A stretch of 64,000 nt of DNA from positions 2,032 to 66,031 of the forward strand of contig JBAYUN010000004.1 in the NCBI GenBank assembly GCA_041675085.1. Direction: 5' to 3'. The notes under the pieces were generated by a model. The model worked only from the letters and a program-made list of their open reading frames with translations. It was not told the DNA's origin and searched no databases. Positions 1,273 through 44,966 of the stretch are shown piece after piece (within the stretch, counting starts at the first letter, position 1; each line of letters starts with the position of its first letter). Both the position numbers and the translations under genes were made by a program. This stretch comes from Minisyncoccota bacterium (GTDB lineage Bacteria; Patescibacteriota; Minisyncoccia; Phycocordibacterales; UBA9973).

Positions 1273-1427
1273 AAAAAATAATTTTTAAACTAATAATAAT
1301 TTCCGCCAAGGGCGGATCAGCCTATGGCTGAAATAATAAAACTTTAAAAGTTCGACCTTAGAAAGCTTATTAGTATTATAACAACTTTTAACCCTTTTTT
1401 TAAGACTTATGTGGATAACTTTGAGTA

Positions 1428-3389
1428 TTATTTATTCAAAATAACACGTGATTGAGGTCCTAGTATACCGTCAGCTTTTAGTCCGTTGTCCGCTTGGAAT
1501 TTCTTTAATGCTACTAGAGTATTGTAGCCAAATTGATTCACCTCTCTGCCCCCTTCTGTGCCAGATACGTTGTAACCTTTTTGATTAAGTTTTTGTTGCA
1601 AACATTTTACTTCATTTGAGTTCTTGCCTTTTAGTAAAGTCCTACTGATTGTACAAATATTTGAATTCTTAGAAATACTAGCTCCCAAGACTTGCCCTCC
1701 TACACATTCTGTACTCATTGAAGTTCTCGGGTAAGAACCAGTATTACCTGCTGCCTTCCAAGAGCTAATAGTTTCGGTCTTGTAGTCTCTAGTACTCGTA
1801 GCACTCGGATACCATTTTTGACAATAAGTTAATGGGTCGATATTGGCACCACTACTACCGTCTGGATCTGTTTGCCAAGTGCCAGATGAATCTGTATGTT
1901 GATTTACTTTACCATACCAAAATGAAATGCGTGGAGTTGTATCGACTGATGGAGTTGTAGGTTCTGCTGGGACCACAGGGTCAGGTGTGACAGGATCTGG
2001 AGTGACTGGGTCGGGAGTAGTCGGAGTTGTCGGTTCTGTTGGAGTGGTAGGTGTAGTTGGAGTCTCTACTGGTGTAGTAGGGGTGACTGGATTTACTGGT
2101 GTAACAGGATTTGTGCCTGGGTCTATGACCGGAGTCTCAGGATTTTCTCCTTTTTTATTGATAGTGAAAAAATCTTTTGAAAAATCTTCAGCTTTTTTAT
2201 CATAAGACTCTGGGCCTAGATGGATTTTAAAATTTTTACCAAATACTATGTCTGGGAAGGAGCCCACAGCTAGAGAAATTTTCTCTTCTCCATCATTCGG
2301 GGTACCCTTCACCAAAATAACAATATATTCTTTTTGATTATTTTTATATATTAAAGATATATTTATTTTTTTATCAGCTGAAGCTTTATTATTTTTCCAA
2401 GTTACTAAAATACTTTCATCTAGATTATAAACTTCTCCACCATTAGGTGAAGTAATTTTAAAGAAGTAAGAATTATTTTCATCTTCATCTATACCAGCTT
2501 GAATACATAAATAAGACAACTTTGTAGAAGTGTGATTATTAAAATTGTATCTCTCATGCCAAGTACTAATAGTCTCTAATTTGTATTCTTTGATGCCAAT
2601 AGTTTTTGGATACCATTTTTTACAATAAGTTAGATAATCTAAATTCGCACCAGAGATACCGTCGGGATCTGTTTCCCATTTACCATTGGTTGTATTAATA
2701 TGTTGATTTACTTTCCCCCACCAAAACATAACTCTAGGTAATAAATCATCACTACCTGGTTTGTCTTCTCCTTTCTTTTCTTCCACGATAGCATCATCTG
2801 ATTTTTTGTCTTCTGTTTTTACCTCTGTGGTTTTTGCCTCTTCTTTGACCTCGGTTTTCACTTCACTTACTACTTCTTTTTGAACTTCTTCTTTAGCTTC
2901 ATCTTTCTTCGATTCTGTTGCATTTTCTGAATTTTCTATTTTTTTATCTTCTTCTTTAATTTCTGTTTTTTCTACATCTTTGACTTCGTTGGACTGAGTC
3001 TCAGAAACAACACTTTCTTCTTTTTGGACTTCTTCTGTACAAGTTAATTTATTGATAGTCTCGCGAGTAAGTGGACCCACGAAGCCAGCAGAGACTAGAT
3101 TGTTGTCTCTTTGAAAAGTCCTAACAGCTCCTAAAGTCTGCTCTCCAAAGTATCCATTTGGTTCTGCTTTTAGATAACCTTTTTCTTTTAAGAAATTCTG
3201 CAACAACAAAACATCTCTTGTATTAGACGCTCTGTCAGAAGCACGATATCTCAAACTCTTATTAATAGAAACACAAACAGCAGAATTCTCTGTGTTTTGA
3301 ATTTGCTCTATTTCAGCATTTTGAGCAAAAGAAAAAATAGGGCTAATTATAAAAGTTAAAACCAATACAAGCTTTATGATTTTTTGCAT
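1428..3389 (-). CDS. Secreted cell-wall-associated protein: signal peptide, N- and C-terminal PG_binding_1 domains, Glu/Lys-rich and Pro/Thr-rich linkers, two copies of the YWWGKVNQH..LTYCKKWYP domain
   Basis: 653-aa ORF with PG-binding motifs (LQNFLKEKGY..FG..T..AV..FQ, and C-terminal VKCLQQKLNQKGY..DGILGP). The repeated modules are PRVMFWWGKVNQH.. and PRISFWYGKVNQH... Confidence 0.8.
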   Translation of the reverse strand: MQKIIKLVLVLTFIISPIFSFAQNAEIEQIQNTENSAVCVSINKSLRYRASDRASNTRDVLLLQNFLKEKGYLKAEPNGYFGEQTLGAVRTFQRDNNLVSAGFVGPLTRETINKLTCTEEVQKEESVVSETQSNEVKDVEKTEIKEEDKKIENSENATESKKDEAKEEVQKEVVSEVKTEVKEEAKTTEVKTEDKKSDDAIVEEKKGEDKPGSDDLLPRVMFWWGKVNQHINTTNGKWETDPDGISGANLDYLTYCKKWYPKTIGIKEYKLETISTWHERYNFNNHTSTKLSYLCIQAGIDEDENNSYFFKITSPNGGEVYNLDESILVTWKNNKASADKKINISLIYKNNQKEYIVILVKGTPNDGEEKISLAVGSFPDIVFGKNFKIHLGPESYDKKAEDFSKDFFTINKKGENPETPVIDPGTNPVTPVNPVTPTTPVETPTTPTTPTEPTTPTTPDPVTPDPVTPDPVVPAEPTTPSVDTTPRISFWYGKVNQHTDSSGTWQTDPDGSSGANIDPLTYCQKWYPSATSTRDYKTETISSWKAAGNTGSYPRTSMSTECVGGQVLGASISKNSNICTISRTLLKGKNSNEVKCLQQKLNQKGYNVSGTEGGREVNQFGYNTLVALKKFQADNGLKADGILGPQSRVILNK

Positions 3390-3409
3390 AAAGATATTAT
3401 ATCAGTTAT

Positions 3410-3991
3410 TTATATCTTTTTTAGTGTTTGTGTGGATAAGTCTTTTGCTTGGATTATGATTTTATGAGGAAAATCCAATATATCTCGGACTAGCTTGTCA
3501 TACATACTCAATCTGTATATAAATTCTTTGTATTCAAAGATAGCATAAGTGATCTCTATACCTATCTCAGCTTCGAGCTTCTTTACACCTTCTTCTATTT
3601 TAGATCTGCGCATCTTGTCCCCTACTATTAATAAGTCTATCCTAGAATCTTTATTTTTAATAAAAACACCAGAGACTAAAAGTAATTTTATCTTGCCAAC
3701 TTTTTTAAATAATAAAGGTATAGTATCAGTATTCAAACTATCAGAACTCACCAATAGAGATTCAAATTCTTTTTCATATTTAAAAGTAGAATTGAAATAA
3801 TATCCGGATTGACGCTTTTTAATAAAATCTACACTAGATAATAATTTTAATTCTTTACGAATTGCTGGTGCCTTAACTAGACTTCTTTTTTCGATTTCTT
3901 TGATATCAAATATCTTGCCTTTATTCAACAAGAAGAGTCTCATTATTTTTATACGAGCTGGGCTACCCAATAATTTACCAAGAATTTCCAT
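3410..3991 (-). CDS. Winged-helix (ArsR-like) putative transcriptional regulator; the ORF extends to 4042 but the likely start is the Met at 3991
   Basis: The N-terminus reads GSPARIKIMRLFLL.. as a winged helix-turn-helix. The product call is tentative. Confidence 0.45.
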   Translation of the reverse strand: MEILGKLLGSPARIKIMRLFLLNKGKIFDIKEIEKRSLVKAPAIRKELKLLSSVDFIKKRQSGYYFNSTFKYEKEFESLLVSSDSLNTDTIPLLFKKVGKIKLLLVSGVFIKNKDSRIDLLIVGDKMRRSKIEEGVKKLEAEIGIEITYAIFEYKEFIYRLSMYDKLVRDILDFPHKIIIQAKDLSTQTLKKI

Positions 3992-5426: not shown

Positions 5427-5511
5427 AAAGTGATTATACCAAGAATTCTACAATAAATACAAAAACCTCTCCTGTTTAACAAGAGAGGTTTTTGAGTAAA
5501 ATTTTATCCAA

Positions 5512-6006
5512 TTAGCTTTGTAATAAGATAGTAGATACGTTTTGAGATTTATCACAATCCACTAAATAAGTTACAGGTAACTTGCTAGCAGAAAGTTTGA
5601 TAATTTTGAAACCATAAGCTTTGATCGTATAAGTAGAACCGACTTTAACTGTACGTGATACAGGAGCACGGTTGTCTAGCATTATACTTGTGCCATTTTT
5701 GAAAGTCATCTTATCAGGACTTGCTTGGCAAGTTTTATCTAATTGAAGACGAGCATCTTTGTATTTTATTAAAGCTTGCTCATAACTCAAACTAACTGCA
5801 GGTGAAGTAGCTACGTCTTTGTCAGGAGTTGTATCTAATTCCCCTGCTACGTTTTCTTCTACTACAACTTCTTCTTGTACTATATTGTTTTCATTTTCCA
5901 ATACATCATCAGCATCATTTTTTTGTGTCGACATAAAAACAATAACTGCGATAACTACCAACACAATTCCACCTATCATCCAAATATTCTTATTTTTTTC
6001 TTCCAT
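5512..6006 (-). CDS. Membrane-anchored hypothetical protein
   Basis: 164-aa ORF with an N-terminal TM segment. Confidence 0.55.
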   Translation of the reverse strand: MEEKNKNIWMIGGIVLVVIAVIVFMSTQKNDADDVLENENNIVQEEVVVEENVAGELDTTPDKDVATSPAVSLSYEQALIKYKDARLQLDKTCQASPDKMTFKNGTSIMLDNRAPVSRTVKVGSTYTIKAYGFKIIKLSASKLPVTYLVDCDKSQNVSTILLQS

Positions 6007-6090
6007 ATAATTTATTTTTCTAAAAAACTTGATAATATTAATTATAACATTTACAAAATAAATTAGATAGTTTGTCCAGAGCTTTTGTCT

Positions 6091-6501
6091 TTATTTTTTA
6101 AGGGAATGGTAGAGTATCAGAATTACAGAAAAAACAAAATATAGCACAGAGAAATATAAAGCAAATATATCTTTTTCGATTCTAAAGTAAACGTCCCCTC
6201 CGTTCCATGGAGTAATCCATATAATTAAAAAATAAATTATTAAATAAAAAAACAAAGTTTTTATCCAGTATTTAAAAATCTTATTATTTAAAAAAATCAA
6301 AATAAAATTAGGAATTAAAATTGTAACAAATATAAGCAAAAACATTAGCACATAATTCATTGATTGCAAACAAGAACTTTTTTGAATACTACAAATATCC
6401 AACAGGATTGTTTTATTTAAAAATATAAAAAACAAAACAGTCAAAAAAGAGCTAAGCAAAAATAATTTCTTCGCGCTAAACCAATTCAAAATTTTATCCA
6501 T
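6091..6501 (-). CDS. Small polytopic membrane protein
   Basis: 136-aa hydrophobic ORF. Confidence 0.45.
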   Translation of the reverse strand: MDKILNWFSAKKLFLLSSFLTVLFFIFLNKTILLDICSIQKSSCLQSMNYVLMFLLIFVTILIPNFILIFLNNKIFKYWIKTLFFYLIIYFLIIWITPWNGGDVYFRIEKDIFALYFSVLYFVFSVILILYHSLKK

Positions 6502-9500: not shown

Positions 9501-10477
9501 TTGGTATCTAGTCCAGTCGACTGCGCCCGACCACCCTCATAAAATACAAACAAATTTGACCTATTTATAATATAGTTCAAAACTGAATTTCCCGAATTGT
9601 CCCTAATCACAAGATCCACATAACCATCAAAATATACAGGGTCCTCCTCTGCACCCAAAACTTTCAAAACTCCTTCCACAAAGAAAATACTAGAATTAAA
9701 TTCTACCACTACTCCAGGCTCGATAACCAAAGTCGCTCCCGAGGCAAGAGTGATATCTTCGTTGACTACATACGGACTACCCTCTTTTGTCCAAGTTGTA
9801 TCTGTAGTAATATCGTCTAAGATTACTGTCCCAGTACCACTATCAGGAGAATCATCTTCACTATCTGATAAAATATAATTCACCGAAAGAGAAATAAAAT
9901 CATGCCCCGTAGTTGTACCGCTTGCCGTCGGAGTCGCGCGATATGCTGAAAATCTAACTTTAGTATTATTTATAAGACTCGCAGTATTCAAGACAGAACT
10001 AGCATCCAAGACATCAACATGATCAACGCTAGAAATACCCACAGTAGATCCAGATATCTCGACAAAACCAACTCCATCCCAAACTTCTATCTTCGATCCT
10101 GCCAAAGCACTCGAACGCTGAAATTCATGATTTATTTTTACTTCATTTATCACCGCATTTGCTGGAACATTTGGCGAAAAAATAAATTCGATGTACCTGT
10201 CGGCAACATACGTATTTTCATCTGGCCATTTATCGCTACGCATTCTATCTACTCCATTACCCGGCTCAGAATCAGAAAAACTTAATTTTTCAATATCACC
10301 TTCTGAAAAAATCTCGGCAACACCAGAACTTTGATCCACACCAGAAGTCACATAATAGACCCCCATATTTTCTGCAATAACTACAGAAATAAAAAAACTG
10401 TTCAACAGAACAGCCATAAGAACAAAAACAAAAAAGTTTTTAAAAATAGAAACCCTGGTTTTTCCTACCAGCGACAT
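6506..10477 (-). CDS. Giant (1323 aa) surface protein: signal peptide, parallel beta-helix repeats, alpha/beta-hydrolase (lipase-like, nucleophile elbow AHSTGG) domain, C-terminal TM anchor
   Basis: An N-terminal hydrophobic segment is followed by repeated N/D/G-rich beta-helix-like units. VTLIAHSTGGLVIKAL is a GxSxG nucleophile elbow, and the terminal FYVIIFIVLLSSFLIKRFIKI is a membrane anchor. Confidence 0.75.
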   Translation of the reverse strand: MSLVGKTRVSIFKNFFVFVLMAVLLNSFFISVVIAENMGVYYVTSGVDQSSGVAEIFSEGDIEKLSFSDSEPGNGVDRMRSDKWPDENTYVADRYIEFIFSPNVPANAVINEVKINHEFQRSSALAGSKIEVWDGVGFVEISGSTVGISSVDHVDVLDASSVLNTASLINNTKVRFSAYRATPTASGTTTGHDFISLSVNYILSDSEDDSPDSGTGTVILDDITTDTTWTKEGSPYVVNEDITLASGATLVIEPGVVVEFNSSIFFVEGVLKVLGAEEDPVYFDGYVDLVIRDNSGNSVLNYIINRSNLFVFYEGGRAQSTGLDTNNDILFFETNSEFADLKATSLYLYDSSMVEINDSLFSGEAKIEVQDYSNLILKNSKVESLNQDSIVNIYNNASASFTNVDILSLDQSNSGISVFGNSNLNFKDGSLSGSRGGFLVYNDSHLNMLNSEISCDNTGISVYNNSAVDFNTGSVNCGVYGMSLFNNVQANFKKVKVFGAMDSGFIVFNNFGDSFVKITDSEITDNLYGFVVYDSVFSANKSNIHNNILSGAFTFRDVDLDFNNNYWGDATGPYHVDLNPNGLGDSVSEHILFEPWLPSWPPVEECVKNCNSNVMFFPGVQGSRMYGEVFDCSSVTPRDPMFCGEQQLWVSPHKVLQEFMFLDEFGKSKNNVYTKNDTESVEGDGGELGVIDEALTVNIYKSFIADLRNLKNTELSLIEDYALIPYDWRLSLEDIIINGKVIGENLSYLNSGDFSESFIVSELRELQRTSRTGKVTLIAHSTGGLVIKALVQKLKDTNDPLYNQIEKIIFIAVPQVGTPEATIAMLHGVPLGPFGILMPSERSREFGENMPTIYNLAPSSGYFNTVDTDQNPILSFQDHPLLENLISKYGSSINTKEELKDFVLGGDGRAKPSVSDTDKPNIVNEYLYSQAELTHGVIDNWQPSPNTKIIEVAGWGEETKVGLKYVIKRKLLGLGREYVSHKPIVSVDGDSTVAFPSALWMENRENVEEWVINLPLFNSLPGPRRDHKNILEIQNLIQFIQAQITDKVFTDNEGIVLKNDNLNFVASNARLHFTLHSPLTLGIFDKEGRYTGLDPVTKEIKQEIPNVNYDMIGTVQFISAPAGIPYTLQLDGYEEGSFTLDVERQEGNNIIQENYFEMIPSSDKTLAYLYIGEDFEVSKAELKVDSDGDGTIDTIYPKVATPEPITPPSSHGVVILINKDNEAKKELVSKTENITPSIGIVLGVESEIPSQSEDIKIQKEEKVLIENKSEGAVQIEAEEIADDSPKESVDVLKEKNTNKNTSFYVIIFIVLLSSFLIKRFIKI

Positions 10478-10520
10478 ACTAAAATTATAATTTTTATAAA
10501 ATCAAAACAAAAGACAAAAT

Positions 10521-10553
10521 CTGTGGATAACTATCCAAGGGCATCCCTTGGAT
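10521..10553 (+). repeat. REP element copy A (ctgtggataactatccaagggcatcccttggat); overlaps the 3' end / stop region of the RAYT gene
   Basis: Nested palindromes tggata-ac-tatcca and atccaaggg-cat-cccttggat. The element contains TGTGGATAA, the reverse complement of the DnaA-box consensus TTATCCACA. Confidence 0.85.
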
Positions 10554-11193
10554 GATTTAACCATTCGTCTATTTCTTTTAGAAAATCTTGCTTTGAAGTA
10601 AAATATTCTGGAAAAGCTTTTATGTTTAGAATCAACACTTCCCTTCTAGGTACTTCTAAAAAATCTAAATAGCTCGAGTTGCTGTAACTGTACAAATAAT
10701 CTTTAGTTTTAGATAAATCATTTATACCTTGCTCCTTCCAAGTTGGGTCAAAAATCTTTACAGGATTGAGGTGAATATACATAAAAATATATTTTAAATA
10801 TTCATCAGAATCTAAATGCTCGGCTCGGAACCTACCTTCAAACAATTTACCCGTCCTGTCGTACTTCTTGTTGAAATACATAGAATACGCAGTCGATAAT
10901 TTCTCCATAAAAATACTAATACCGTTTTCTTGTTTTTCTTTTAGCAATAAATGAAAATGATTTGGCATCAAACAATAACTGCCAATATCGACAAGAGTTT
11001 CGCCTCGTTCTATCTTGTCCAAGGGCACCCCTTGGATAGTTTTAAAGACAACTGGTTTCGAGCCATTGCATACAAATAAAAGCTTTATAAACCTCTTGTA
11101 GTCAAAATCATCCAAAAATATCAAGGATTTATTGTTTCCCCTATTGTAAACATGATAGTATTCGTTAATTGAAAAATTTATCTTTCTTTCCAT
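10531..11193 (-). CDS. tnpA_REP: REP-associated tyrosine transposase (RAYT, IS200/IS605-type Y1 HUH transposase)
   Basis: HUH motif (YCLMPNHFHLLL), the HVYNRGNN motif and conserved Tyr residues downstream. A degenerate REP lies inside the ORF (11027-11050). Confidence 0.8.
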   Translation of the reverse strand: MERKINFSINEYYHVYNRGNNKSLIFLDDFDYKRFIKLLFVCNGSKPVVFKTIQGVPLDKIERGETLVDIGSYCLMPNHFHLLLKEKQENGISIFMEKLSTAYSMYFNKKYDRTGKLFEGRFRAEHLDSDEYLKYIFMYIHLNPVKIFDPTWKEQGINDLSKTKDYLYSYSNSSYLDFLEVPRREVLILNIKAFPEYFTSKQDFLKEIDEWLNHPRDALG

Positions 11194-11223
11194 ATTATCT
11201 AAATATCACCACTAACAAATAAA

Positions 11224-11247
11224 ATCCAAGGATTGACCTTGGATTTT
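11224..11247. repeat. Degenerate REP-like palindrome (atccaagg attgac cttggat)
   Basis: Same arms as the REP but a different loop. Confidence 0.5.
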
Positions 11248-11253
11248 ATGATT

Positions 11254-12000
11254 TTACAACTTATTTAATCTATCGATTTCTGTTTGGTAAACTGTTTTAT
11301 TTTGAGGATATACTTCTATCGCTTTATTCCAGACTGCTATCGCTTCGTTTTTCTGTCCATTATTTTCAGCTATGCGAGCAAAGTTGGTCATCAGGTTTAT
11401 CTTTGTTTTTGGATCAACTTTATTCATACCTTGATCGTACACTGCCTTTAAAACAGTAAAGCTCGCAGTAGTCTTTTCGTCCATAGCTACCAACTTGTAA
11501 ATCCAATAATCTGTGTAAGTCGGGTTGAGCTCTATCGCTTGGTCTATCATCTCGAGTGCTTTATTCCAATCCCCTTTGGCGCTATATGCAGAGAAAAGTC
11601 TCACATAAACTACATCGGATTTGCTATAAGTCAGAGCTTCATCAAAATAACTTATTGCTTTAGTGTAATCTTTATCATTAAAAGCAGTCGAACCATTAGC
11701 TAAAGCTGTATTGAATTTTGTTTTATTGGTATTTACTACTGGTTTTACTGTTGGGTCTGTCGCACTCGTATTAGTATTTTCTTCTACTTTTTCTGTTTCT
11801 GTAGTAGTGTTCTCATCTATTACCGTACTAGTATTATCTAAATCAATATTTTCTATATCTTCATCAATACCTTTCTTGTAATCCATGAGTCCAGCAATAA
11901 CCAATATGGCTATCATTGCTCCTATTATTATATAATTGATGTATTTTTTATTCATAGTATTAATTATATAGAAAAACAACAAAGAATCAATATTTACCAT
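11254..12000 (-). CDS. Membrane-anchored TPR-repeat protein (likely start at the Met at 11955)
   Basis: A TM segment is followed by TPR-like helical repeats. Confidence 0.6.
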   Translation of the reverse strand: MVNIDSLLFFYIINTMNKKYINYIIIGAMIAILVIAGLMDYKKGIDEDIENIDLDNTSTVIDENTTTETEKVEENTNTSATDPTVKPVVNTNKTKFNTALANGSTAFNDKDYTKAISYFDEALTYSKSDVVYVRLFSAYSAKGDWNKALEMIDQAIELNPTYTDYWIYKLVAMDEKTTASFTVLKAVYDQGMNKVDPKTKINLMTNFARIAENNGQKNEAIAVWNKAIEVYPQNKTVYQTEIDRLNKL

Positions 12001-12036
12001 TTATCCAAGGGATGCCCTTGGATAGTTATCCACAGG
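12001..12036 (-). repeat. REP copy D (reverse orientation)
   Basis: ttatccaagggatgcccttggatagttatccacagg. Confidence 0.85.
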
Positions 12037-12070
12037 TGGGCTTGGGTTGGTTTTTGGCTTAGTTTTTAGT

Positions 12071-13528
12071 TTAGTTTACTGAACTTAGCATCTTTTCTTT
12101 GGTTTTTGGACCTATTAGTCCGTCAGCAGTCAATCCATTATCCTTTTGCCATTGCTTGATAACTGCTATCGTCTTTGGTCCTAATTTACCGTCAACTACT
12201 AGACCTAGGTTTAAAACTTGATTCAAGAATCTTTGCAATTCTTTTACAGCTTCACCCTTGCTGCCATTTTTCAAGATAGTGTTTCCAAAATTGTATTTAA
12301 TTATCGGAGTTGCAGATAGAGTGCCAGTATTCACTACGCAAGACTTACCCGTAGTAGTACTAAAGCCAGTTGTTCTATTATCGCAACCTGGTATAACATT
12401 GTCGGCTACTGTAATACTGATACTAATAGGTACGATAATTTCAGAACCATTAGTAGAAATAGGAGTTACAGTCAAAGTCGGAGTCGCAGACACAACTAGA
12501 GGAGCAGGAGCAGGACTTCCACTTCCTCCACTATGCACCACAGCCACATAATCAAAAGTCGCTACTGGAGAAGTGTTATCAAAAAGATCACAACCTACGG
12601 CTTTGACTGTAGTCGAAGCTGTAACATTGAAAGGATTTGCTGTGAGGCCTGTAGTACAAGTCGGAGTCGAGCCATCTACAGTATAATGAATATCAGTAGA
12701 ACCAGTTGAAGATAAAGTCAGAGCTTGAGATGTGAGGTTTACTAAAATCATATTTGTAACGCTCGAAGTCGGAGTGCTTGGGATCTGACGATCAGATACG
12801 TCTTGGTTTTGAGTTGAAGCATTTGAATTTGCAAAAGGTGAAATATCGCGAACTGCATCAAGAGCTATATCTAAACCTGCTCCAGACCAAAAGTCAGGAT
12901 TAAGCAAAGGTTGAGTTGTAAGATTCACAATAGAAGCATCAGTACCATCGACAGCTGCGGCTGTTATCACTACACCATTAGCGGTCAAATCGAAATCAGA
13001 CCCATTAGCTTCTTGAACCGCTACATCTTCAGAAAAAGTAACTGCTATGTTTGTATTACTTGTGGCACTAGCAGAAACAAAAACAGGATTCTGATCATCG
13101 TTCACAGCCAGAGAAGCTCCATGAGCCACAACTTCATTCGTATCTCCGTTGGTGTCAGTTACAGCCAAAGCATCTACATACAATCCATGACTAGCGTCGT
13201 AAGCAGTAGCTGTATCAGAGAAAGGAGTACCTGCGAAAGTTAGAGTCGCTACCCAAGGGTTACCTGGAGTAGTAATAACAGCTGAGACAGGAGTCAGAGG
13301 GCTCACTCCCCCAGTATTCACGTCTATGTGGAATTTAGAGAAATCGATAGAAGCCAAGTTGTGTCCTGGATTATTAAAATAAACCTGAATAGTATTAGAG
13401 GAAACAATATTTCCTCCAGCTGTACCGATATCGGCAGCGGCATTCGCTTTTAGACTAAAAGAGTAAACAAAGACAAAAACCAAACTCGTCACCAATAAAG
13501 ACAAACTCAACTTTTTTATGATTTGCAT
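12071..13528 (-). CDS. Secreted surface protein with Ig-like/beta-rich repeats and a C-terminal PG_binding_1 domain
   Basis: Signal peptide, with the C-terminus GSKGEAVKELQRFLNQ..DGKLGPKT..IKQWQ. Confidence 0.7.
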   Translation of the reverse strand: MQIIKKLSLSLLVTSLVFVFVYSFSLKANAAADIGTAGGNIVSSNTIQVYFNNPGHNLASIDFSKFHIDVNTGGVSPLTPVSAVITTPGNPWVATLTFAGTPFSDTATAYDASHGLYVDALAVTDTNGDTNEVVAHGASLAVNDDQNPVFVSASATSNTNIAVTFSEDVAVQEANGSDFDLTANGVVITAAAVDGTDASIVNLTTQPLLNPDFWSGAGLDIALDAVRDISPFANSNASTQNQDVSDRQIPSTPTSSVTNMILVNLTSQALTLSSTGSTDIHYTVDGSTPTCTTGLTANPFNVTASTTVKAVGCDLFDNTSPVATFDYVAVVHSGGSGSPAPAPLVVSATPTLTVTPISTNGSEIIVPISISITVADNVIPGCDNRTTGFSTTTGKSCVVNTGTLSATPIIKYNFGNTILKNGSKGEAVKELQRFLNQVLNLGLVVDGKLGPKTIAVIKQWQKDNGLTADGLIGPKTKEKMLSSVN

Positions 13529-13589
13529 ATTAATTTATTTAGAAAACAATTTTAAATTTAATAATAGAAACAAATAACTAAATTAATTA

Positions 13590-13630
13590 TAACACAAACA
13601 AAAAGCTAAATCATAAATTTATGATTTAGC
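13590..13630. terminator. Bidirectional terminator (14-bp perfect palindrome agctaaatcataaa/tttatgatttagct flanked by A- and T-runs)
   Basis: Seen directly in the sequence. Confidence 0.55.
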
Positions 13631-13643
13631 TTTTTGTTCTACC

Positions 13644-13676
13644 CTGTGGATAATTATCCAAGGGCATCCCTTGGAT
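13644..13676 (+). repeat. REP copy E, followed by the gggaaggtc-aga-ccttccc hairpin (13680-13705)
   Basis: ctgtggataattatccaagggcatcccttggat. Confidence 0.85.
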
Positions 13677-13713
13677 TTTGGGAAGGTCAGACCTTCCCTT
13701 TTTTAAGATTAAA

Positions 13714-13956
13714 TTATTCAGTGTAAAAAATATTGTTTATCTCTTCAAGAGTTAGGAATGGTTTCAAAGCTCTGATTATAGCTTTCTGTGTTCCCCTATC
13801 TAATTCGTCATGATTTGGTATTGAGATATTTTGAGTTTCGTTTATATTAACACGACTTAATCTTATATGACTTCCTTTTTGCCTAACAACAACAAAACCA
13901 AGCGCTTCTAATTCTTTAATAATTTCTTTACCTGAAAGTCTTTTAAGATTAGGCAT
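13714..13956 (-). CDS. hicA: HicA-family mRNA-interferase toxin
   Basis: GSHIRL.. and IPNHDELDRGTQKAIIRAL match the HicA/YcfA fold signature. The gene overlaps hicB by 8 nt. Confidence 0.7.
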   Translation of the reverse strand: MPNLKRLSGKEIIKELEALGFVVVRQKGSHIRLSRVNINETQNISIPNHDELDRGTQKAIIRALKPFLTLEEINNIFYTE

Positions 13957-14170
13957 ATATCATATCTGCTAAATCAAAATTAATCATAACAGGATGAGAA
14001 ATATTATCCTTTTGATCAACTTCTTCGAAATACAAATCTGTAGCTTCTTTTATATTACTTACAAGCTCCTCAAAGGTTTTACCTTGAGTTACTATCGCAT
14101 AGTCATTTGCAGAGCCGACATAATAGCCGTCTTCTCCTTTTTCTATTTTAAATAATACTATTTTTGACAT
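13949..14170 (-). CDS. hicB: HicB-family antitoxin (short, UPF0150 domain only)
   Basis: YYVGSANDYAIVTQGKTFEELVSNIKEA motif, lying upstream of and overlapping hicA. Confidence 0.6.
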   Translation of the reverse strand: MSKIVLFKIEKGEDGYYVGSANDYAIVTQGKTFEELVSNIKEATDLYFEEVDQKDNISHPVMINFDLADMIYA

Positions 14171-14236
14171 ATTTATATTATATCACAAAATGTTAGAAAA
14201 GATAGGTTTTATTTTATAAAGGGTCTAAAAAAGGAG

Positions 14237-14269
14237 CTGTGGATAACTATCCAAGGGCATCCCTTGGAT
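14237..14269 (+). repeat. REP copy F
   Basis: Identical 33-mer. Confidence 0.85.
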
Positions 14270-14280
14270 GTGGCAAATAC

Positions 14281-14604
14281 TTATTTTTGTTTTTTCTTTT
14301 CTAATAAGTACACACGAGAAGCTAGTTCGTCAAACATACGATGAGTAACAAATTTATCACCTAGATCCAACATATCTCTACGAGTTGCTTTAACATTTTC
14401 GTCTATTTGTTTTACTTTTTCATCTAAAGCATCAAACTTAGAATCTATGCCATCGAATTTAGCATCTATAGCATCAAATTTAGAATCTATACGTTCAAAT
14501 CCCTTAGCAGTCATAATAGCTAAGTTGTTTACAGTTTCTGAAAGATTGTTAACAGTACCTGCTAAATCTTCGATAGTCATTTTCTTTTTTACGACTTTCT
14601 TCAT
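14281..14604 (-). CDS. Small coiled-coil protein with 8-aa tandem repeats (SKFDAIDAKFDGIDSKFDALD)
   Basis: 107-aa ORF with about 24-bp periodicity in the DNA at roughly 14425-14500. Confidence 0.6.
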   Translation of the reverse strand: MKKVVKKKMTIEDLAGTVNNLSETVNNLAIMTAKGFERIDSKFDAIDAKFDGIDSKFDALDEKVKQIDENVKATRRDMLDLGDKFVTHRMFDELASRVYLLEKKKQK

Positions 14605-14610
14605 TCTTTA

Positions 14611-14640
14611 ATTATATCACACAAGAATTTTGTGATGCAA
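14611..14640 (-). promoter_or_regulatory. Sigma70-like promoter TTGCAT-N18-TATAAT only 6 nt upstream of the ATG, which predicts a leaderless transcript
   Basis: The minus-strand read is ttgcatcacaaaattcttgtgtgatataattaaagaATG. The sequence is identical at 16459-16488. Confidence 0.5.
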
Positions 14641-14925
14641 TCTGTATTTATAAAGGGTCTAAAAAAGGAGCTGTGGATAACTATCCAAGGGCATCCCTTG
14701 GATTGGGAGTTTTGGATTTTGGGAAGGTCGGACCTTCCCAGATTTTGGTTTCTTGGTCTTGGGTAGGTCTGACCTCCCCTTTTTAAAATACAAATTGGAA
14801 CGCAAAAAGCCCTCGCTTTCGCGAGGGCTTTTTGCTGCTTTTTACGGCATCCCCTAAAAGTTTTCTTCTTTATTATTTCTTATTTATAAGATTGCATTAT
14901 TCTTTTAGTTGAGTCAAACTTACAA
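14611..14925 (-). repeat. Composite intergenic cassette, unit 1: promoter + REP copy G (14670-14702) + gggaaggtc hairpins + conserved terminator (14803-14843) + AT-rich tail
   Basis: Long stretches are shared with the units at 15735-15955 and 16456-16732. Confidence 0.7.
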
Positions 14926-15025
14926 ATTATTTTAAAGTTATCCACAATTATTTGCTTTTATTTTTAAAAAAATATATAATATAAGTGTTATTCAAAAAAG
15001 CCACCTGCAAAGGGGGCTTTTTTAT

Positions 15026-15649
15026 TTATATGGATACTACTGGTATTTCTTTCTTTATATTTTCTTTAATATCCAAAAGAGACATATAAAATACTTTATC
15101 TTTCTTTTCACTAACCAAAGCTCGTAGTTTAGTTGAATACACAGCAACAGTAAGCCCAGACTTGATGTCTCGACCAGCATAAGAAACTATTGTAACTTTT
15201 GTAACTCCTTTTTCAAGAGCCTTTCTTATAACATATTCAAAATCTCCATCCCCTGTAAAAATCAACAACTCAACGTCAGGAGCAGATTTATCAATAACAT
15301 CAACCGCCAGTTCCACATCACAATTAGCTTTCTTGCGATATCCCATATTTATAATTTGAATATTATCTTTCAAGCACCCAGAACATTTAAAAGCTATAAT
15401 TTTATCTTTATTTTTGTAAGAAAAAATTGATTTACTTTTAACGATACAACAAGGAGTTTTATTTAATAGATCAAATTCTTTTGCTGTTTCTATATCACCA
15501 TTATCGATACCTGTATAAAAAAGAACCTCAGAACAAGATTTTTTATTTTTTAAAAAGTCAGCTACTTTCATCCAGTCAACAACAAAGTCTAACATTTTTT
15601 CAGTTGTACTTGCTGTATTTTGAACATCCACAAAAGCATATCTTTTCAT
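15026..15649 (-). CDS. NYN-domain (LabA-like) putative RNase; the ORF extends to 15697 but the likely start is MKRYAFVDVQN
   Basis: The acidic residues FVDVQN.., DVELAVDVID and LIFTGDGDFEYVI are typical of PF01936. Confidence 0.65.
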   Translation of the reverse strand: MKRYAFVDVQNTASTTEKMLDFVVDWMKVADFLKNKKSCSEVLFYTGIDNGDIETAKEFDLLNKTPCCIVKSKSIFSYKNKDKIIAFKCSGCLKDNIQIINMGYRKKANCDVELAVDVIDKSAPDVELLIFTGDGDFEYVIRKALEKGVTKVTIVSYAGRDIKSGLTVAVYSTKLRALVSEKKDKVFYMSLLDIKENIKKEIPVVSI

Positions 15650-15734
15650 AAATAAAATTATACTATATTTTTTTCCTTCATTCAATACGATAAACATAAG
15701 CTGGATTTATGAAAGTTAATACATACAATCTGTT

Positions 15735-15955
15735 TTAAAACTAGGCTGTGGATAACTATCCAAGGGCATCCCTTGGATACGGGGTTTTGGTGAGTAGTGG
15801 GTAGTGGATATTGAGATTGGAACCCCAGTCAGTCGCGACTGACTGGGCAAGAACGCAAAAAGCCCTCGCTTTCGCGAGGGCTTTTTACTGCTTTTTGCGG
15901 CATCCCCTAAAAGTTTTCTTCTTTCTTATTTCTAAGATTGAATTATTCTTTTAGT
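15735..15955 (-). repeat. Composite cassette, unit 2: REP copy H (15746-15778) + 22-bp perfect palindrome ccagtcagtcgcgactgactgg (15825-15846) + terminator hairpin (15862-15881)
   Basis: Sequence identity with units 1 and 3 across aacgcaaaaagccctcgctttcgcgagggctttttgctgcttttt..attgaattattcttttagtt. Confidence 0.7.
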
Positions 15956-15963
15956 TCGAGATT

Positions 15964-16452
15964 TTAACTTAGAACTTTTTCTTCTAGGATTTCTATTCTT
16001 CTATCGTGATTATTTACAGTATCAGACATATCATCAAATTTTTCATTTAACTCTTTGAAGTTTTCTCTAGTTTCTATTTTAAATGATTTTAAATCTGTTT
16101 CAAGATTATTAAAATGAGTATTAGTTTCAAGTTTAAAAAGATTCAGATTAGTTTCTAAGCCATCAACTTTATCAGTTAGCTTAGAGACACTAATTGCAAC
16201 AGTTTCAACTAATTGAGTAAGGCTTCCTAGATCACTTTTTATATCAACTATGTCATTCTTAACACCAGCCATATCTCCTTTAAGACCACCTATGTCATTT
16301 TTAATGTCGAGCAAGTCTTCCTTGGTGGCGAAAGACTTTAGGTCTTCTTTGGTAGCGAAAGACTTTAGATCTTCTTTAGTGGCAAGATTTTCAAGATCTT
16401 TTTTGGTTAAGAATATTGAAGCTAATTTTTGTATGTCTTGATCTGTTAACAT
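15964..16452 (-). CDS. Coiled-coil tandem-repeat protein (LKSFATKEDL x3, 27-bp DNA repeats 16315-16395)
   Basis: 162-aa ORF; paralogous to 63119..63604 through the ATKEDL repeats, and shares its promoter with 14281..14604. Confidence 0.6.
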   Translation of the reverse strand: MLTDQDIQKLASIFLTKKDLENLATKEDLKSFATKEDLKSFATKEDLLDIKNDIGGLKGDMAGVKNDIVDIKSDLGSLTQLVETVAISVSKLTDKVDGLETNLNLFKLETNTHFNNLETDLKSFKIETRENFKELNEKFDDMSDTVNNHDRRIEILEEKVLS

Positions 16453-16455
16453 TCT

Positions 16456-16732
16456 TTAATTATATCACACAAGAATTTTGTGATGCAATCTGTATTTATA
16501 AAGGGTCTAAAAATGAACCTGTGGATAACTATCCAAGGGCATCCCTTGGATTTATGGTTTTGGGTTTTGGGGAGATCAGACCTTCCCTTTTCTTTTTTTT
16601 CCTTTTTTAAAATACAAATTGGAACGCAAAAAGCCCTCGCTTTCGCGGGGGCTTTTTGCTGCTTTTTACGGCATCCCTTAAAAGTTTTCTTCTTTCTTAT
16701 TTCTAAGATTGAATTATTCTTTTAGTTCAAAA
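16456..16732 (-). repeat. Composite cassette, unit 3: promoter (16459-16488) + REP copy I (16519-16551) + hairpin + terminator (16633-16652)
   Basis: As for units 1 and 2. Confidence 0.7.
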
Positions 16733-20046: not shown

Positions 20047-20640
20047 TATTTTTTTTAATTACGCCATTAATAAGTTTCGACAAAACTAAAAGCGTATTTT
20101 CTATCGTCCTCATCCCTACTTAATTAATAAATAATAATAATGCGTAGTGACTTGCGAGGACAAAAAGATTTGAACTAAACTTGAAAACATAACTAAAGAC
20201 ATTTGCAATTGTGATGCAAACATTTTTATTGTATTAAGTTTTCAATGACCTTTCTTTTACCGAATCTTTGCAATAAATTTATTTTACTAAACTTAAAACA
20301 AAGACAGGCTTTGATCCTTTGTGTACTAAATCTTTTCGACGAAATTTAGCAACAAGATCTTATACTATATATAAGTATGAGAATAAGACTTTCGTAAAAT
20401 TCTTCACACTAATAATATATACGTATACATTATAATATAGACTCTCGAATAAGAGCAATATTACAACGTGTGGATAACCGATAATTTCGCATAAGAAAAA
20501 TAAATTCTTCGCTAGTTACTCCACCTATCTATATTGGCATATTTTTGACATAAAAGCAAACACAAATTAGGTTCTAGTCGCTAGGTTCTAGGTTCTAGGA
20601 AAATGCAAAAATGCAAAAAACAAAGAAAGGTTATTAGAGA

Positions 20641-44548: not shown

Positions 44549-44966
44549 ATTGTTATCTTAACATAAACAAAAGTTGTCCACACATAAAATTGTCAGAAAA
44601 TTGTATTGGTGATACTATTTTAAATATACATTGTTCTTTTTCTTCACCTAAAATTTAATAAAGCATGAATACAACAAATTAACGTTTTTTTATCACGTAG
44701 TGCCTTTCAATGATAGCTCACAACATCTTGTATGAAGTGAGCTATTTTTATTGATCTTAAAATGAAAAAAAGTTATCCACAGTTAGTATTGAGTTTTTAA
44801 AATAAAAGTATACACTCTTATTTATATAAGGTTCTTTGTAAACAGACTTGGAGATAAGTGAAAATAAGATATAAAAAGTTAGCTCGCCTTGTGCTTAAAA
44901 ATTTTGAGCTTAAAGCGAGTTAACTCTTTTATTTAATTTTATTTAATCACCTTTAAATCTTTAGTT

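Follow-up and report, generated by a model that had tools for sequence, protein, structure and literature searches.

The RAYT-like gene and its surroundings

The DNA analysed here, called the window throughout, is a stretch of 64 kb that holds one gene for a RAYT-like Y1/HUH protein and, adjoining it, a 33-nt repeat (REP) whose copies, seven full and two partial, all lie within 6 kb. The features of this region, including the upstream (U), internal (I) and 3' (D) hairpins of the gene itself, are the following:

10521..10553, plus strand: REP copy A, which forms hairpin D of the RAYT gene; the following gene has its TATAAT 32 nt downstream of the box
10531..11193, minus strand: gene for the RAYT-like Y1/HUH protein (220 aa), with H79-F-H81 as the HUH motif and the catalytic Tyr within Y139-IHLNPVK
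11018..11036, minus strand: internal hairpin I, in frame, at nt +159 of the ORF
11221..11247, no strand assigned: upstream hairpin U, 48 nt 5' of the ATG; stem AAAATCCAAGG/CCTTGGATTTT retained
12003..12035, minus strand: REP copy in inverted orientation, upstream of a TPR gene; also present in the sister genome
12042..14280, minus strand: segment missing from the sister genome, with a 485-aa PG_binding gene, REP 13644, hicA/hicB and REP 14237
13644..13676, plus strand: REP copy with one mismatch (C to T); a GGGAAGGTC-type hairpin follows 3 nt further on
13680..13698, no strand assigned: second hairpin family GGGAAGGTCNGACCTTCCC, with more copies at 14721, 14761 and 16569
14237..14269, plus strand: REP copy, right edge of the segment missing from the sister genome
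14671..14703, plus strand: REP copy within a duplicated spacer module of ~300 nt
15746..15778, plus strand: REP copy upstream of a NYN-domain gene
16519..16551, plus strand: REP copy within a duplicated spacer module of ~300 nt

An earlier note on this DNA had taken the ORF for a Y1/HUH transposase of the RAYT (TnpA_REP) type, and the HMM search that it proposed for 10531..11193 bears this out, with Pfam Y1_Tnp scoring 36.4 bits against a threshold of 23. H79, H81 and Y139 are invariant in an alignment of 45 sequences. The YI.LNPVK motif around the catalytic tyrosine is one that we take to be common to E. coli TnpA_REP and the window's protein, which presumably also shares the N-terminal YH.YNRG...IF signature with the TIRYT/subclass 2.1 proteins. 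The AlphaFold model (pLDDT 91) has as its best PDB match 4ER8, E. coli TnpA_REP bound to a REP (E = 2.8e-6), above the IS608 and ISDra2 transposases. The NCBIfam equivalog NF047646 (REP_Tyr_transpos) reached 42.1 bits, below its cut-off of 80, a profile search of PDB sequences with the protein returned no match, and neither a DnaA_C-like nor an HTH domain was matched in it. The gene is present once in the window and has at least 7,751 homologues, the named ones nearly all from Patescibacteria, which contradicts the earlier view of RAYT/REP systems as uncommon in the lineage. Its protein ends in ...EWLNHPRDALG*, and copy 10521-10553 provides the final 7 codons as well as the stop, so that the 3' end of tnpA is indeed encoded by copy A, as had been noticed before.

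The 33-nt repeat

The 32-mer TGTGGATAACTATCCAAGGGCATCCCTTGGAT occurs seven times in the window (six exact copies and one with one mismatch), where 100 shuffles gave an expected count of none. Its copies start at 10522, 12003 (minus strand), 13645, 14238, 14672, 15747 and 16520, and a C conserved 5' of all seven extends them to 33-mers. These counts confirm a multicopy 33-bp element beside a single Y1/HUH gene. The coordinates first given for it hold in general, apart from 12001 and 14670, which were 1-2 nt off, and the degenerate copies placed at 11027 and 11224 both exist, with actual spans of 11018-11036 and 11225-11243. The remaining 58 kb of the window yielded no copy of the 33-mer or of its hairpin, and the "swarm" of the earlier note is, within the window, a cluster of 6 kb. 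The "two nested hairpins" of the earlier description are alternatives with TATCCA in common; folded computationally as single-stranded DNA, the 33-mer forms one 9-bp hairpin (-8.3 kcal/mol, z = -3.9) and the box sits in a 12-nt unpaired 5' tail.

The gene downstream of copy A starts at 10477, and the full inverted copy lies 810 nt upstream of the RAYT gene. Six of the 33-mers are identical, whereas their paralogous flanks are 63-92% alike. Three of the seven copies belong to duplicated spacer modules of 138-300 nt, so spread by segmental duplication is possible. The island copies have no T-run after the hairpin, and no clean pair of filled and empty sites for a single 33-mer came to light. The 33-mer sometimes adjoins an unrelated second hairpin.

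Hairpins of the gene family

Seventy homologue loci were selected by protein similarity alone, and in 45 of them the same stem occurs both upstream and at the stop codon of the RAYT-like gene; since it flanks the gene in this way, the hairpin is supported as the putative cognate element of the RAYT-like gene. A third copy of the same stem lies in frame at codons ~53-59 in 24 of the 70 loci, and 31-32% of genes have a perfect stem of at least 7 bp within nt 135-200 of the ORF, compared with ~4% for the rest of the gene. The stems are lineage-specific (CCAAGGG, CATAGGC, CGAAGGTC, GTGAAGGT and others) and those of U, I and D vary in concert between lineages. The loop of hairpin I is one codon (for V, M, L, R or E) that follows the loops of the flanking copies, and a change of the stem from GGG/CCC to GGT/ACC turns QGxPL into QGSTL in the protein; in the window hairpin I encodes I-Q-G-V-P-L-D, with codon 56 as its loop. 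In a codon-register alignment 76.7% of cells pair, compared with 69.7% in shuffles (0 of 500 as high) and 30-51% in slid controls. In the region of hairpin I the DNA appears to lead and the protein to follow. Depending on the genome, the end of the ORF runs through the D hairpin in one frame or another (HPRDALG, IQGMPLD, YPRVTLG), and therefore conservation is of the DNA and not of the peptide. We found no description in the literature of a co-varying, in-frame third hairpin in RAYT-like genes.

In the CCAAGGG clade, each of the 10 loci with an intact upstream hairpin has the loop of this hairpin inverted, and in the wider family its orientation is mixed. In the window the GGG/CCC core and the loop of U have degenerated, as the upstream hairpin has in locus L047, and its 3' arm overlaps the likely -35 region. 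The exact hairpin was found in ~90 DNA stretches from Patescibacteria genomes, at ~1-8 per related genome, and had no match in viral contigs. At distances above 300 nt from the gene, relatives rarely have cognate hairpins (0.046 per kb), and the window's repeat cluster is local and, for this family, unusually dense. Canonical REPs carry GT[AG]G 0-2 nt 5' of the hairpin foot (PMC6006769, PMC3479197); at the foot of the window's hairpin this motif is absent, with a GTGG sitting 8 nt off, and no conserved tetranucleotide abuts the hairpin across the lineages compared.

A variable island

In a sister genome, with a RAYT 93% identical and DNA ~81% identical to that of the window, the RAYT-like locus is syntenic. 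Together with the single copy in the window, the neighbours that recur across lineages and the lack of viral matches to the hairpin, this suggests a domesticated rather than a roaming gene. The comparison of individual copies with this genome, which had also been proposed, revealed differences in both presence and orientation. The REP copies near the orthologous 86/107-aa gene are in the opposite orientation in the sister genome and lie on the other side of the neighbouring hairpin, and the sister island carries three REP-borne boxes (two of them inverted) and two solo boxes inside the TPR gene; the window's box cluster is thus conserved there neither in number nor in orientation. Identical copies in diverged flanks, together with these flips, suggest that the 33-mer may have been active recently. 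Between conserved genes, the window has six co-oriented accessory genes (162 aa, NYN, 107 aa, HicB, HicA, 485 aa), whereas the sister island has one credible gene, the 86-aa homologue of the 107-aa gene, and a probably spurious 68-aa ORF call in overlap with a REP. The repeat cluster sits in a variable island of gene cassettes.

Three indels relative to the sister genome were looked at. The missing segment 12042..14280 (2.2 kb) has both breakpoints within ~10 nt of REP edges, the 2.0-kb window-only gene at 1419-3430 has TGTGGATAA on either side and a single box at the empty site of the sister genome, and the indel at 5441-6477 is without box or hairpin at its junctions. The first two, along with the contrast of six accessory genes to one, are what would be expected if hairpin and box served as sites for the insertion and excision of single genes with the HUH enzyme as recombinase, that is, an integron-like logic built from unrelated parts. 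Like integron arrays with their attC hairpins, the island has co-oriented single-gene units, including a toxin-antitoxin pair, with folded-strand palindromes between them and a recombinase-like gene adjoining. Nevertheless, we consider such a platform improbable. The junctions of the third indel do not fit it, and the promoter segments (~45 nt) that contain boxes 1410 and 3431 are paralogous, for which ordinary recombination or the gain or loss of a tandem paralogue would suffice. Moreover, most relatives have no hairpins beyond the gene's own and none of the cassettes turned up in another genomic context. Unlike integron arrays, the island has a promoter for each of its genes, Pfam scans of its eight proteins detected no integrase of the IntI type or otherwise, and the repeat element lacks R/L boxes and attC core sites.

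The box and its promoters

The nonamer TGTGGATAA occurs 12 times in the window, compared with 0.68 expected, and seven of these occurrences are inside the repeats. All 12 perfect boxes are non-coding, and each of these TTATCCACA sites matches the DnaA box TTATNCACA. The lone boxes are:

1410..1418, minus strand: lone box TTATCCACA; TATAAT 29 nt downstream; left junction of the 2-kb segment absent from the sister genome
3431..3439, minus strand: lone box; TATAAT 29 nt downstream; right junction of the same 2-kb segment
14938..14946, plus strand: lone box; TATAAT 28 nt downstream
20469..20477, minus strand: lone box; TATATT 29 nt downstream; kept in the sister genome
44773..44781, plus strand: lone box in the divergent spacer beside smpB

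The lone boxes had been listed before with 3431 correctly placed, but 1408, 20461 and 44771 become 1410, 20469 and 44773 (reverse complement), 14938 (reverse complement) had been missed, and the box claimed at 44563 is the one-mismatch TTGTCCACA at 44574. The perfect match of the repeat's 5' arm to the DnaA-box consensus stands, but the motif is not specific to the REP. Among 75 lone TTATCCACA sites, a TATAAT-like hexamer lies 27-34 nt downstream of 36-38, compared with 25 of 342 control 9-mers, and the usual register is ~29 nt before the hexamer. Across 697 kb of related DNA the 9-mer ranks first among the 1,680 that have its composition. AGTTATCCACA is a general motif found upstream of promoters in Patescibacteria. 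Only one of the seven repeat-borne boxes is near the usual register with a credible -10 (copy 10522, at 32 nt); copy 13645 has TATGAT at 29 nt, but within a terminator hairpin, and for the others the nearest credible -10 is at 19, 53-55 or more nt. An order of D hairpin, a few nt, (A)AGTTATCCACAG and promoter recurs after RAYT genes with very different hairpins, and the repeat unit looks like a 3' hairpin that may have been fused to the box of the next promoter.

It is conceivable, though unlikely, that the 33-mers are selected cis elements, a factor box with an insulating or stabilising hairpin, which spread with duplicated spacers while the RAYT had no part in their copying. Each copy lies between the end of a gene and the following promoter in an island whose genes are all co-directional, three copies are in the duplicated promoter/terminator modules, the box is truly promoter-associated and many hairpin copies of other genomes have flanking A-runs and T-runs and resemble terminators. 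However, most repeat-borne boxes are out of the ~29-nt register, and the element is flipped in the same spacer of the sister genome, which leaves box and promoter without a fixed relation. Likewise, such selection does not account for island hairpins that lack the T-run, for 33 identical nucleotides within diverged flanks or for the family-wide tie between hairpin and RAYT.

That the cluster acts as a DnaA sink or as a set of DnaA-controlled sites, like E. coli datA or the B. subtilis DBCs, would be in keeping with seven perfect TTATCCACA in 6 kb, with the excess and top rank of the motif and with the precedent of another Y1 subclass that has a DnaA-C-like HTH (PMC6006769), but seems very unlikely, as the boxes came as part of a mobile repeat, differ in number and orientation in the sister island, otherwise form a fixed-distance promoter element and have no origin link (no dnaA signature and no origin-like GC skew switch in the 64-kb window), and the RAYT-like protein has no DnaA_C-like domain.

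Proposed origin of the cluster and comparison with known systems

Taken as a whole, the locus is probably of the RAYT/REP kind, with three cognate hairpins of which D, together with the box, was copied as the 33-mer; as part of that reading, it would be a chromosomal, vertically inherited locus within a Patescibacteria-specific branch of Y1/HUH proteins. The enzyme would recognise the 9-bp hairpin ATCCAAGGG-NNN-CCCTTGGAT in single-stranded DNA, and its gene would maintain a copy of this hairpin in each of three set positions: U ~48 nt 5' of the ATG, with inverted loop and over the -35, I at codons 53-59 and D at the stop. In the window's lineage, the D hairpin would have been fused to the AGTTATCCACAG box in the promoter of the following gene, with 2 nt between them, and repeated copying would then have placed the resulting 33-nt unit in several spacers of the variable island alongside. 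The most likely route is cleavage and strand transfer on single-stranded DNA catalysed by the RAYT, with extra copies from duplication and recombination of whole spacer modules. The box would be a passenger, since lone boxes are promoter-linked and the same layout recurs after unrelated hairpins, and it may add sites for the factor that reads it, presumably DnaA.

The closest known system is E. coli TnpA_REP with its REPtron and BIMEs (4ER8; PMC3479197), which is the best structural match and shares the Y1/HUH fold and a single chromosomal gene, at a fixed locus and vertically inherited, between cognate hairpins of which the upstream one is inverted. Unlike that system, the window has perfect stems without a bulge, no GTAG at the hairpin's foot and few, clustered copies instead of hundreds; its protein has an additional helical C-terminal part of ~70 aa, its gene holds a third hairpin in frame and its repeat unit bears a promoter/DnaA-type box. 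The REPIN-RAYT systems of Pseudomonas (PMC3116915, PMC3337134) also combine a domesticated single-copy transposase with identical short hairpin repeats in each genome, but REPINs are inverted doublets spread over the genome, whereas the unit of the window is a single hairpin with a 12-nt tail, confined to one island.

By analogy with IS200/IS605 elements (IS608, ISDra2) and PATEs, the HUH/Tyr enzyme would work with subterminal hairpins and single-stranded DNA; hairpins bound the gene on either side, and I and D are co-oriented, as are LE and RE. Those elements are multi-copy and position-free, whereas synteny of the locus extends over deep lineages, the window has a single copy, viral contigs gave no match and the CCAAGGG clade has its upstream hairpin inverted. 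The TIRYT/subclass 2.1 Y1 proteins, which have a Bac_DnaA_C-like C-terminal domain (PMC6006769), belong to the same superfamily and offer a conceptual link between Y1 enzymes and DnaA-type recognition, but the window's protein is without DnaA_C or HTH and is associated with hairpins instead of terminal inverted repeats. Across lineages with different hairpins, the genes that recur beside the RAYT are those for a large surface protein of the PG_binding type (11 loci) and for a TPR protein (8).

The RAYT gene and its protein family

The protein encoded by the RAYT gene (220 aa, Y1/HUH type) passes the Pfam Y1_Tnp profile with 36.4 bits against a threshold of 23, and it does not reach the NCBIfam RAYT equivalog (42 bits vs 80). 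H79, H81 and the motif Y139-x-H-L-N-P are invariant across 45 homologues. A sequence-profile search of the PDB gave no match and only fold comparison succeeded: the AlphaFold2 model built from the alignment of the 45 homologues (mean pLDDT 91) has as its best PDB match 4ER8, the E. coli TnpA_REP bound to REP (E = 2.8e-6), followed by the IS608 and ISDra2 transposases. By the profile score, the invariant HUH and tyrosine residues and this best fold match, the RAYT/REP reading of the earlier note was largely right. It was wrong in calling such systems uncommon in this lineage, since at least 7,751 proteins are homologous at E <= 1e-5 and those with organism names come nearly all from Patescibacteria; their source annotation is merely 'transposase'. 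To our knowledge, RAYT/REP systems have been reported almost solely from Proteobacteria, and our non-exhaustive literature search found no report linking RAYT or REPIN with Patescibacteria. The C-terminus of the protein was also considered as a DnaA_C-like domain, for which Pfam gave no match even at E <= 1.

The window holds one RAYT copy. L182, a sister genome with a RAYT 93% identical (DNA about 81%), is collinear with the window from ftsK to the mechanosensitive-channel gene, and the RAYT neighbours recur across lineages with different hairpins: 11 loci have a large PG_binding surface protein and 8 have a TPR protein. The former is a large Ser/Thr-rich PG_binding_1 surface protein, and the PG_binding_1/TPR neighbourhood is conserved deep in the phylum (loci L103, L104, L106, L110, L120, L136, L139, L140, L152, L155, L167, L174 and others). 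Carriage by phage was dismissed, as 0 viral contigs bear the hairpin. The single copy in the window, the synteny, the recurring neighbours and the absence of the hairpin from viral contigs are traits of RAYTs and not of IS200/IS605 elements; judged by this genomic setting, the locus is domesticated and not roaming. It also differs from canonical REP systems, which have GT[AG]G at the hairpin foot (PMC6006769; PMC3479197), where none is found here, and which form a large dispersed population, whereas the copies in the window are few and all lie within 6 kb.

A three-hairpin layout with a copy in the coding sequence

A scan for ATCCAAGGG-NNN-CCCTTGGAT with one genome per species returned 99 stretches, about 90 of them from Patescibacteria of many candidate phyla. 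A RAYT homologue is present in 15, and the 14 in which hairpins were mapped share a common layout, with cognate hairpins at three places: about 48 nt before the ATG (U), in frame at nt +159 of the ORF (I), and at the stop codon or just past it (D). Because this set had been selected by hairpin, 80 further loci were fetched by protein similarity alone. In this second set, 31-32% of the genes carry a perfect stem of at least 7 bp in the windows that begin at nt 135-150, while over the rest of their length the figure is about 4%. Both flanks were available for 70 loci: 45 of them repeat one stem core upstream and at the stop codon, and in 24 the in-frame position has this core too. Stems are lineage-specific (CCAAGGG, CATAGGC, CGAAGGTC, GTGAAGGT, CAAGGAC, AGGTTTAACCT), and those of U, I and D switch jointly between lineages. 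On this comparative reading the hairpin belongs to the RAYT gene. A huge RAYT-like family of the ultrasmall Patescibacteria with a conserved three-hairpin layout goes beyond what the earlier note described. In other genomes, the same hairpin often has an A-run on one side and a T-run on the other, resembling a bidirectional intrinsic terminator (L030, L058, L073, L076, L095, L097 and others).

In the CCAAGGG clade the loop of I is exactly one codon, which encodes V, M, L, R or E and corresponds to the loops of the outer copies. The rare codons GGG, CCC and TTG recur consistently despite a genome of 35% G+C, and a stem change to GGT/ACC turns the peptide QGxPL into QGSTL. In an alignment set by codon register rather than by the hairpin, with members filtered by the distance between motifs, 76.7% of cells are paired versus 69.7% in shuffles (0 of 500 reach the observed value); slid controls give 30-51%, and 12 cells are changed on both sides of the pair. 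Residues 53-59, encoded by I, form in the model an excursion between helix 29-41 and strand 68-75, a stretch that is highly variable among homologues lacking the hairpin. At the other end, D is read in differing frames by the ORF tails of different genomes, and this tail is disordered in the AlphaFold2 model. As these patterns indicate, the in-frame copy is maintained at the DNA level; any function of it is putative. A hairpin embedded in frame in a RAYT gene and co-evolving with the outer copies was likewise absent from the earlier note as a finding, and a non-exhaustive literature search yielded no account of a REP within a RAYT gene.

The 33-mer and the variable island

Repeats, hairpins, spacer modules and lone boxes of the window
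10531-11193, minus strand: RAYT ORF, its terminus lying within the 33-mer copy 10521-10553
11018-11036: hairpin-only copy inside the RAYT ORF (I)
11225-11243: hairpin-only copy 48 nt before the RAYT ATG (U)
13680-13698, 14721-14739, 14761-14779, 16569-16587: second hairpin family GGGAAGGTCNGACCTTCCC, adjoining three 33-mers
14798-14904, 15851-15957, 16622-16728: 107-nt terminator module duplicated between cassettes, 83-96% alike
14168-14305, 14602-14739, 16450-16587: 138-nt promoter module duplicated between cassettes, 63-92% alike
1410, 3431, 14938, 20469, 44773: lone boxes, perfect DnaA-box 9-mers outside any 33-mer

The swarm of repeats that had been noticed beside the RAYT gene was confirmed, as the 32-mer TGTGGATAACTATCCAAGGGCATCCCTTGGAT has seven copies between 10.5 and 16.6 kb (six exact, one with one mismatch) and none in 100 shuffles, the chance expectation. 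Each is preceded by a conserved C, making a 33-nt unit directly outside which the flanks diverge. The earlier note had described two nested hairpins, but these do not form together: the minimum-free-energy fold of the 33-mer is a single 9-bp hairpin with a 12-nt 5' tail containing the box. Its coordinates were correct within a few bases, although the lone box at 14938 had been missed and the site placed at 44563 is a one-mismatch site at 44574.

The flanks of the six identical 33-mers are merely 63-92% alike or unrelated, which argues for recent copying or homogenisation, while three of the copies sit in duplicated spacer modules and may have spread together with them. Cognate hairpins away from the RAYT gene average 0.046 per kb in the family versus about 1.1 per kb in this island, and 13 of the 17 GC-rich perfect hairpins of the window fall within it. 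The route by which RAYTs copy REPs is still unsettled, and the copying mechanism of the 33-mer is one that we infer.

Six genes of the window lie between the large PG_binding gene and the TPR gene; in the same interval L182 has an 86-aa gene and a 68-aa ORF, the latter probably spurious because it overlaps a REP. A 2.2-kb segment found only in the window (about 12042-14280) has a REP edge within about 10 nt of each breakpoint. Another window-only stretch, a 2.0-kb gene (1419-3430), has TGTGGATAA on either side and a single box at the empty site of L182; since these boxes lie in similar promoter segments, ordinary recombination could explain it. The junctions of a third indel (5441-6477), a 164-aa gene missing in the sister, have neither box nor hairpin. 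Beside the orthologous 86/107-aa gene, the L182 33-mer has the opposite orientation and has changed sides relative to the adjacent GGGAAGGTC hairpin. Inversion of the whole unit is ruled out, as the GT-rich spacer keeps its strand and only the 33-mer changes side and orientation; a 33-mer flipped in an unflipped spacer moved independently of its flanks.

No second RAYT cognate to the GGGAAGGTC hairpins was found in the window. The GGGAAGGTCNGACCTTCCC stem is the flanking and internal type in RAYT genes of other lineages (e.g. L129, L152), and a third type, CATAGGGTTACCCTATG, which is that of the REPs in a further RAYT lineage (e.g. L123), occurs in the same spacer of L182 (window-oriented positions about 11786-11802); several hairpin families thus share these spacers. 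Two Logan unitigs of SRR6484325 from the same strain, L002 (1508 nt) and L188 (971 nt), seem to end near 33-mers, and in L002 the RAYT ORF reaches within 6 nt of the contig end. If these ends are confirmed, assemblies are interrupted at the 33-mers, and this would agree with the large number of 1-2-kb contigs bearing RAYT homologues.

A DnaA-box-like motif upstream of promoters

The box is not confined to the repeats. TGTGGATAA has 12 sites in the window versus 0.68 expected, all perfect copies being non-coding, and in 697 kb of related DNA TTATCCACA ranks first among 1,680 9-mers of equal composition (29 occurrences vs a mean of 6.4). Of the lone box sites, 75 distinct ones in 1.26 Mb, 36-38 are followed by a TATAAT-like hexamer at 27-34 nt, most often at 29 nt, compared with 25 of 342 (7%) for control 9-mers; other spacing windows after lone boxes have the hexamer in 6-20 of 75, mostly 6-12. 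In the window itself, four of the five lone boxes have it at 28-29 nt. The extended consensus is AGTTATCCACA(G). This fixed spacing marks the box as a general promoter-upstream element, whose centre would lie near -46 if transcription begins 7 nt past the -10; any function of it is putative. Such a DnaA-box-like element, regularly spaced from the -10, was not part of the earlier note. A non-exhaustive search found no report on TTATCCACA with Patescibacteria, a phylum in which regulators are very few and promoters have hardly been studied by experiment. If the box truly stands at a fixed distance before the -10 of about a tenth of promoters, it offers a lead to a global regulator, presumably DnaA.

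A special association of the box with RAYT flanks was dropped, because its frequency there (6 of 72 loci have one upstream, at -60 to -69, and 11 of 73 have one downstream) is close to the per-promoter expectation. The earlier note had also suggested that the repeats titrate DnaA. The island shows no GC-skew switch, and six-frame translation of the window gave no DnaA signature, so an origin or DnaA-sink location was rejected; titration by the repeats is unsupported. A promoter motif hitch-hiking on the repeat is the better explanation of the box. Only copy 10521 places its box at nearly the customary distance from a credible -10 (32 nt). A TATGAT does follow the box of copy 13645 at 29 nt, although within a terminator hairpin; the remaining copies show a spacing of 19 or 55 nt or lack the hexamer. 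The order 'D hairpin, few nt, (A)AGTTATCCACAG, promoter of next gene' recurs in lineages with unrelated stems, which suggests that the 33-mer arose when a D hairpin was fused through a 2-nt spacer to a neighbouring promoter box.

Possible roles of the hairpins

A broader proposal, which we hold to be unlikely as a whole, is that the family deliberately keeps I in frame and an inverted U over the promoter for action on its own gene, and that the hairpin-box unit also marks borders at which accessory genes enter and leave, as an HUH-driven cassette platform. For the first part, the RAYT enzyme could repress itself, could invert the 200-bp U-I segment and so switch the gene on and off, or could remove the I-D segment and thereby shed non-autonomous derivatives. 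For the second, the hairpin fused to a promoter/DnaA-type box would mark island borders crossed by single accessory genes. The three-hairpin layout with its coding-sequence copy offers a testable handle on RAYT self-recognition, and perhaps self-control.

Other observations

The window (35% G+C), part of a 529-kb metagenome contig (ENA ERZ27247358), contains tmRNA, tRNA-Ile(TAT) and the 5' end of 23S rRNA. A reading of the island as a defence system was rejected, PADLOC yielding only a weak NYN match, and exact-protein look-ups of NYN and HicA for the cassettes in other contexts gave only the same contig and one short unitig. The island's two coiled-coil genes contain in-frame tandem repeats of 21 nt (14416-14499) and 27 nt (16315-16368).

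The box and TATAAT (14975-14980) at 14938-15025 (+) face a stretch that contains nothing but a terminator hairpin (about 14997-15025), in convergent orientation to the NYN gene, and could give a very short transcript or serve as an antisense promoter. The 528-nt spacer 20114-20640 upstream of the 1126-aa PG_binding gene, in which the box at 20469 is conserved in L182, could be a long leader or contain a small gene or RNA that is not annotated; no Rfam family matched there at gathering score. Before four island genes, the -10 elements end about 6-8 nt ahead of the ATG (10477-10495, 11193-11215, 14604-14625, 16452-16475), and two of them are extended (TGnTATAAT). The transcripts of these four genes look leaderless, without a Shine-Dalgarno.
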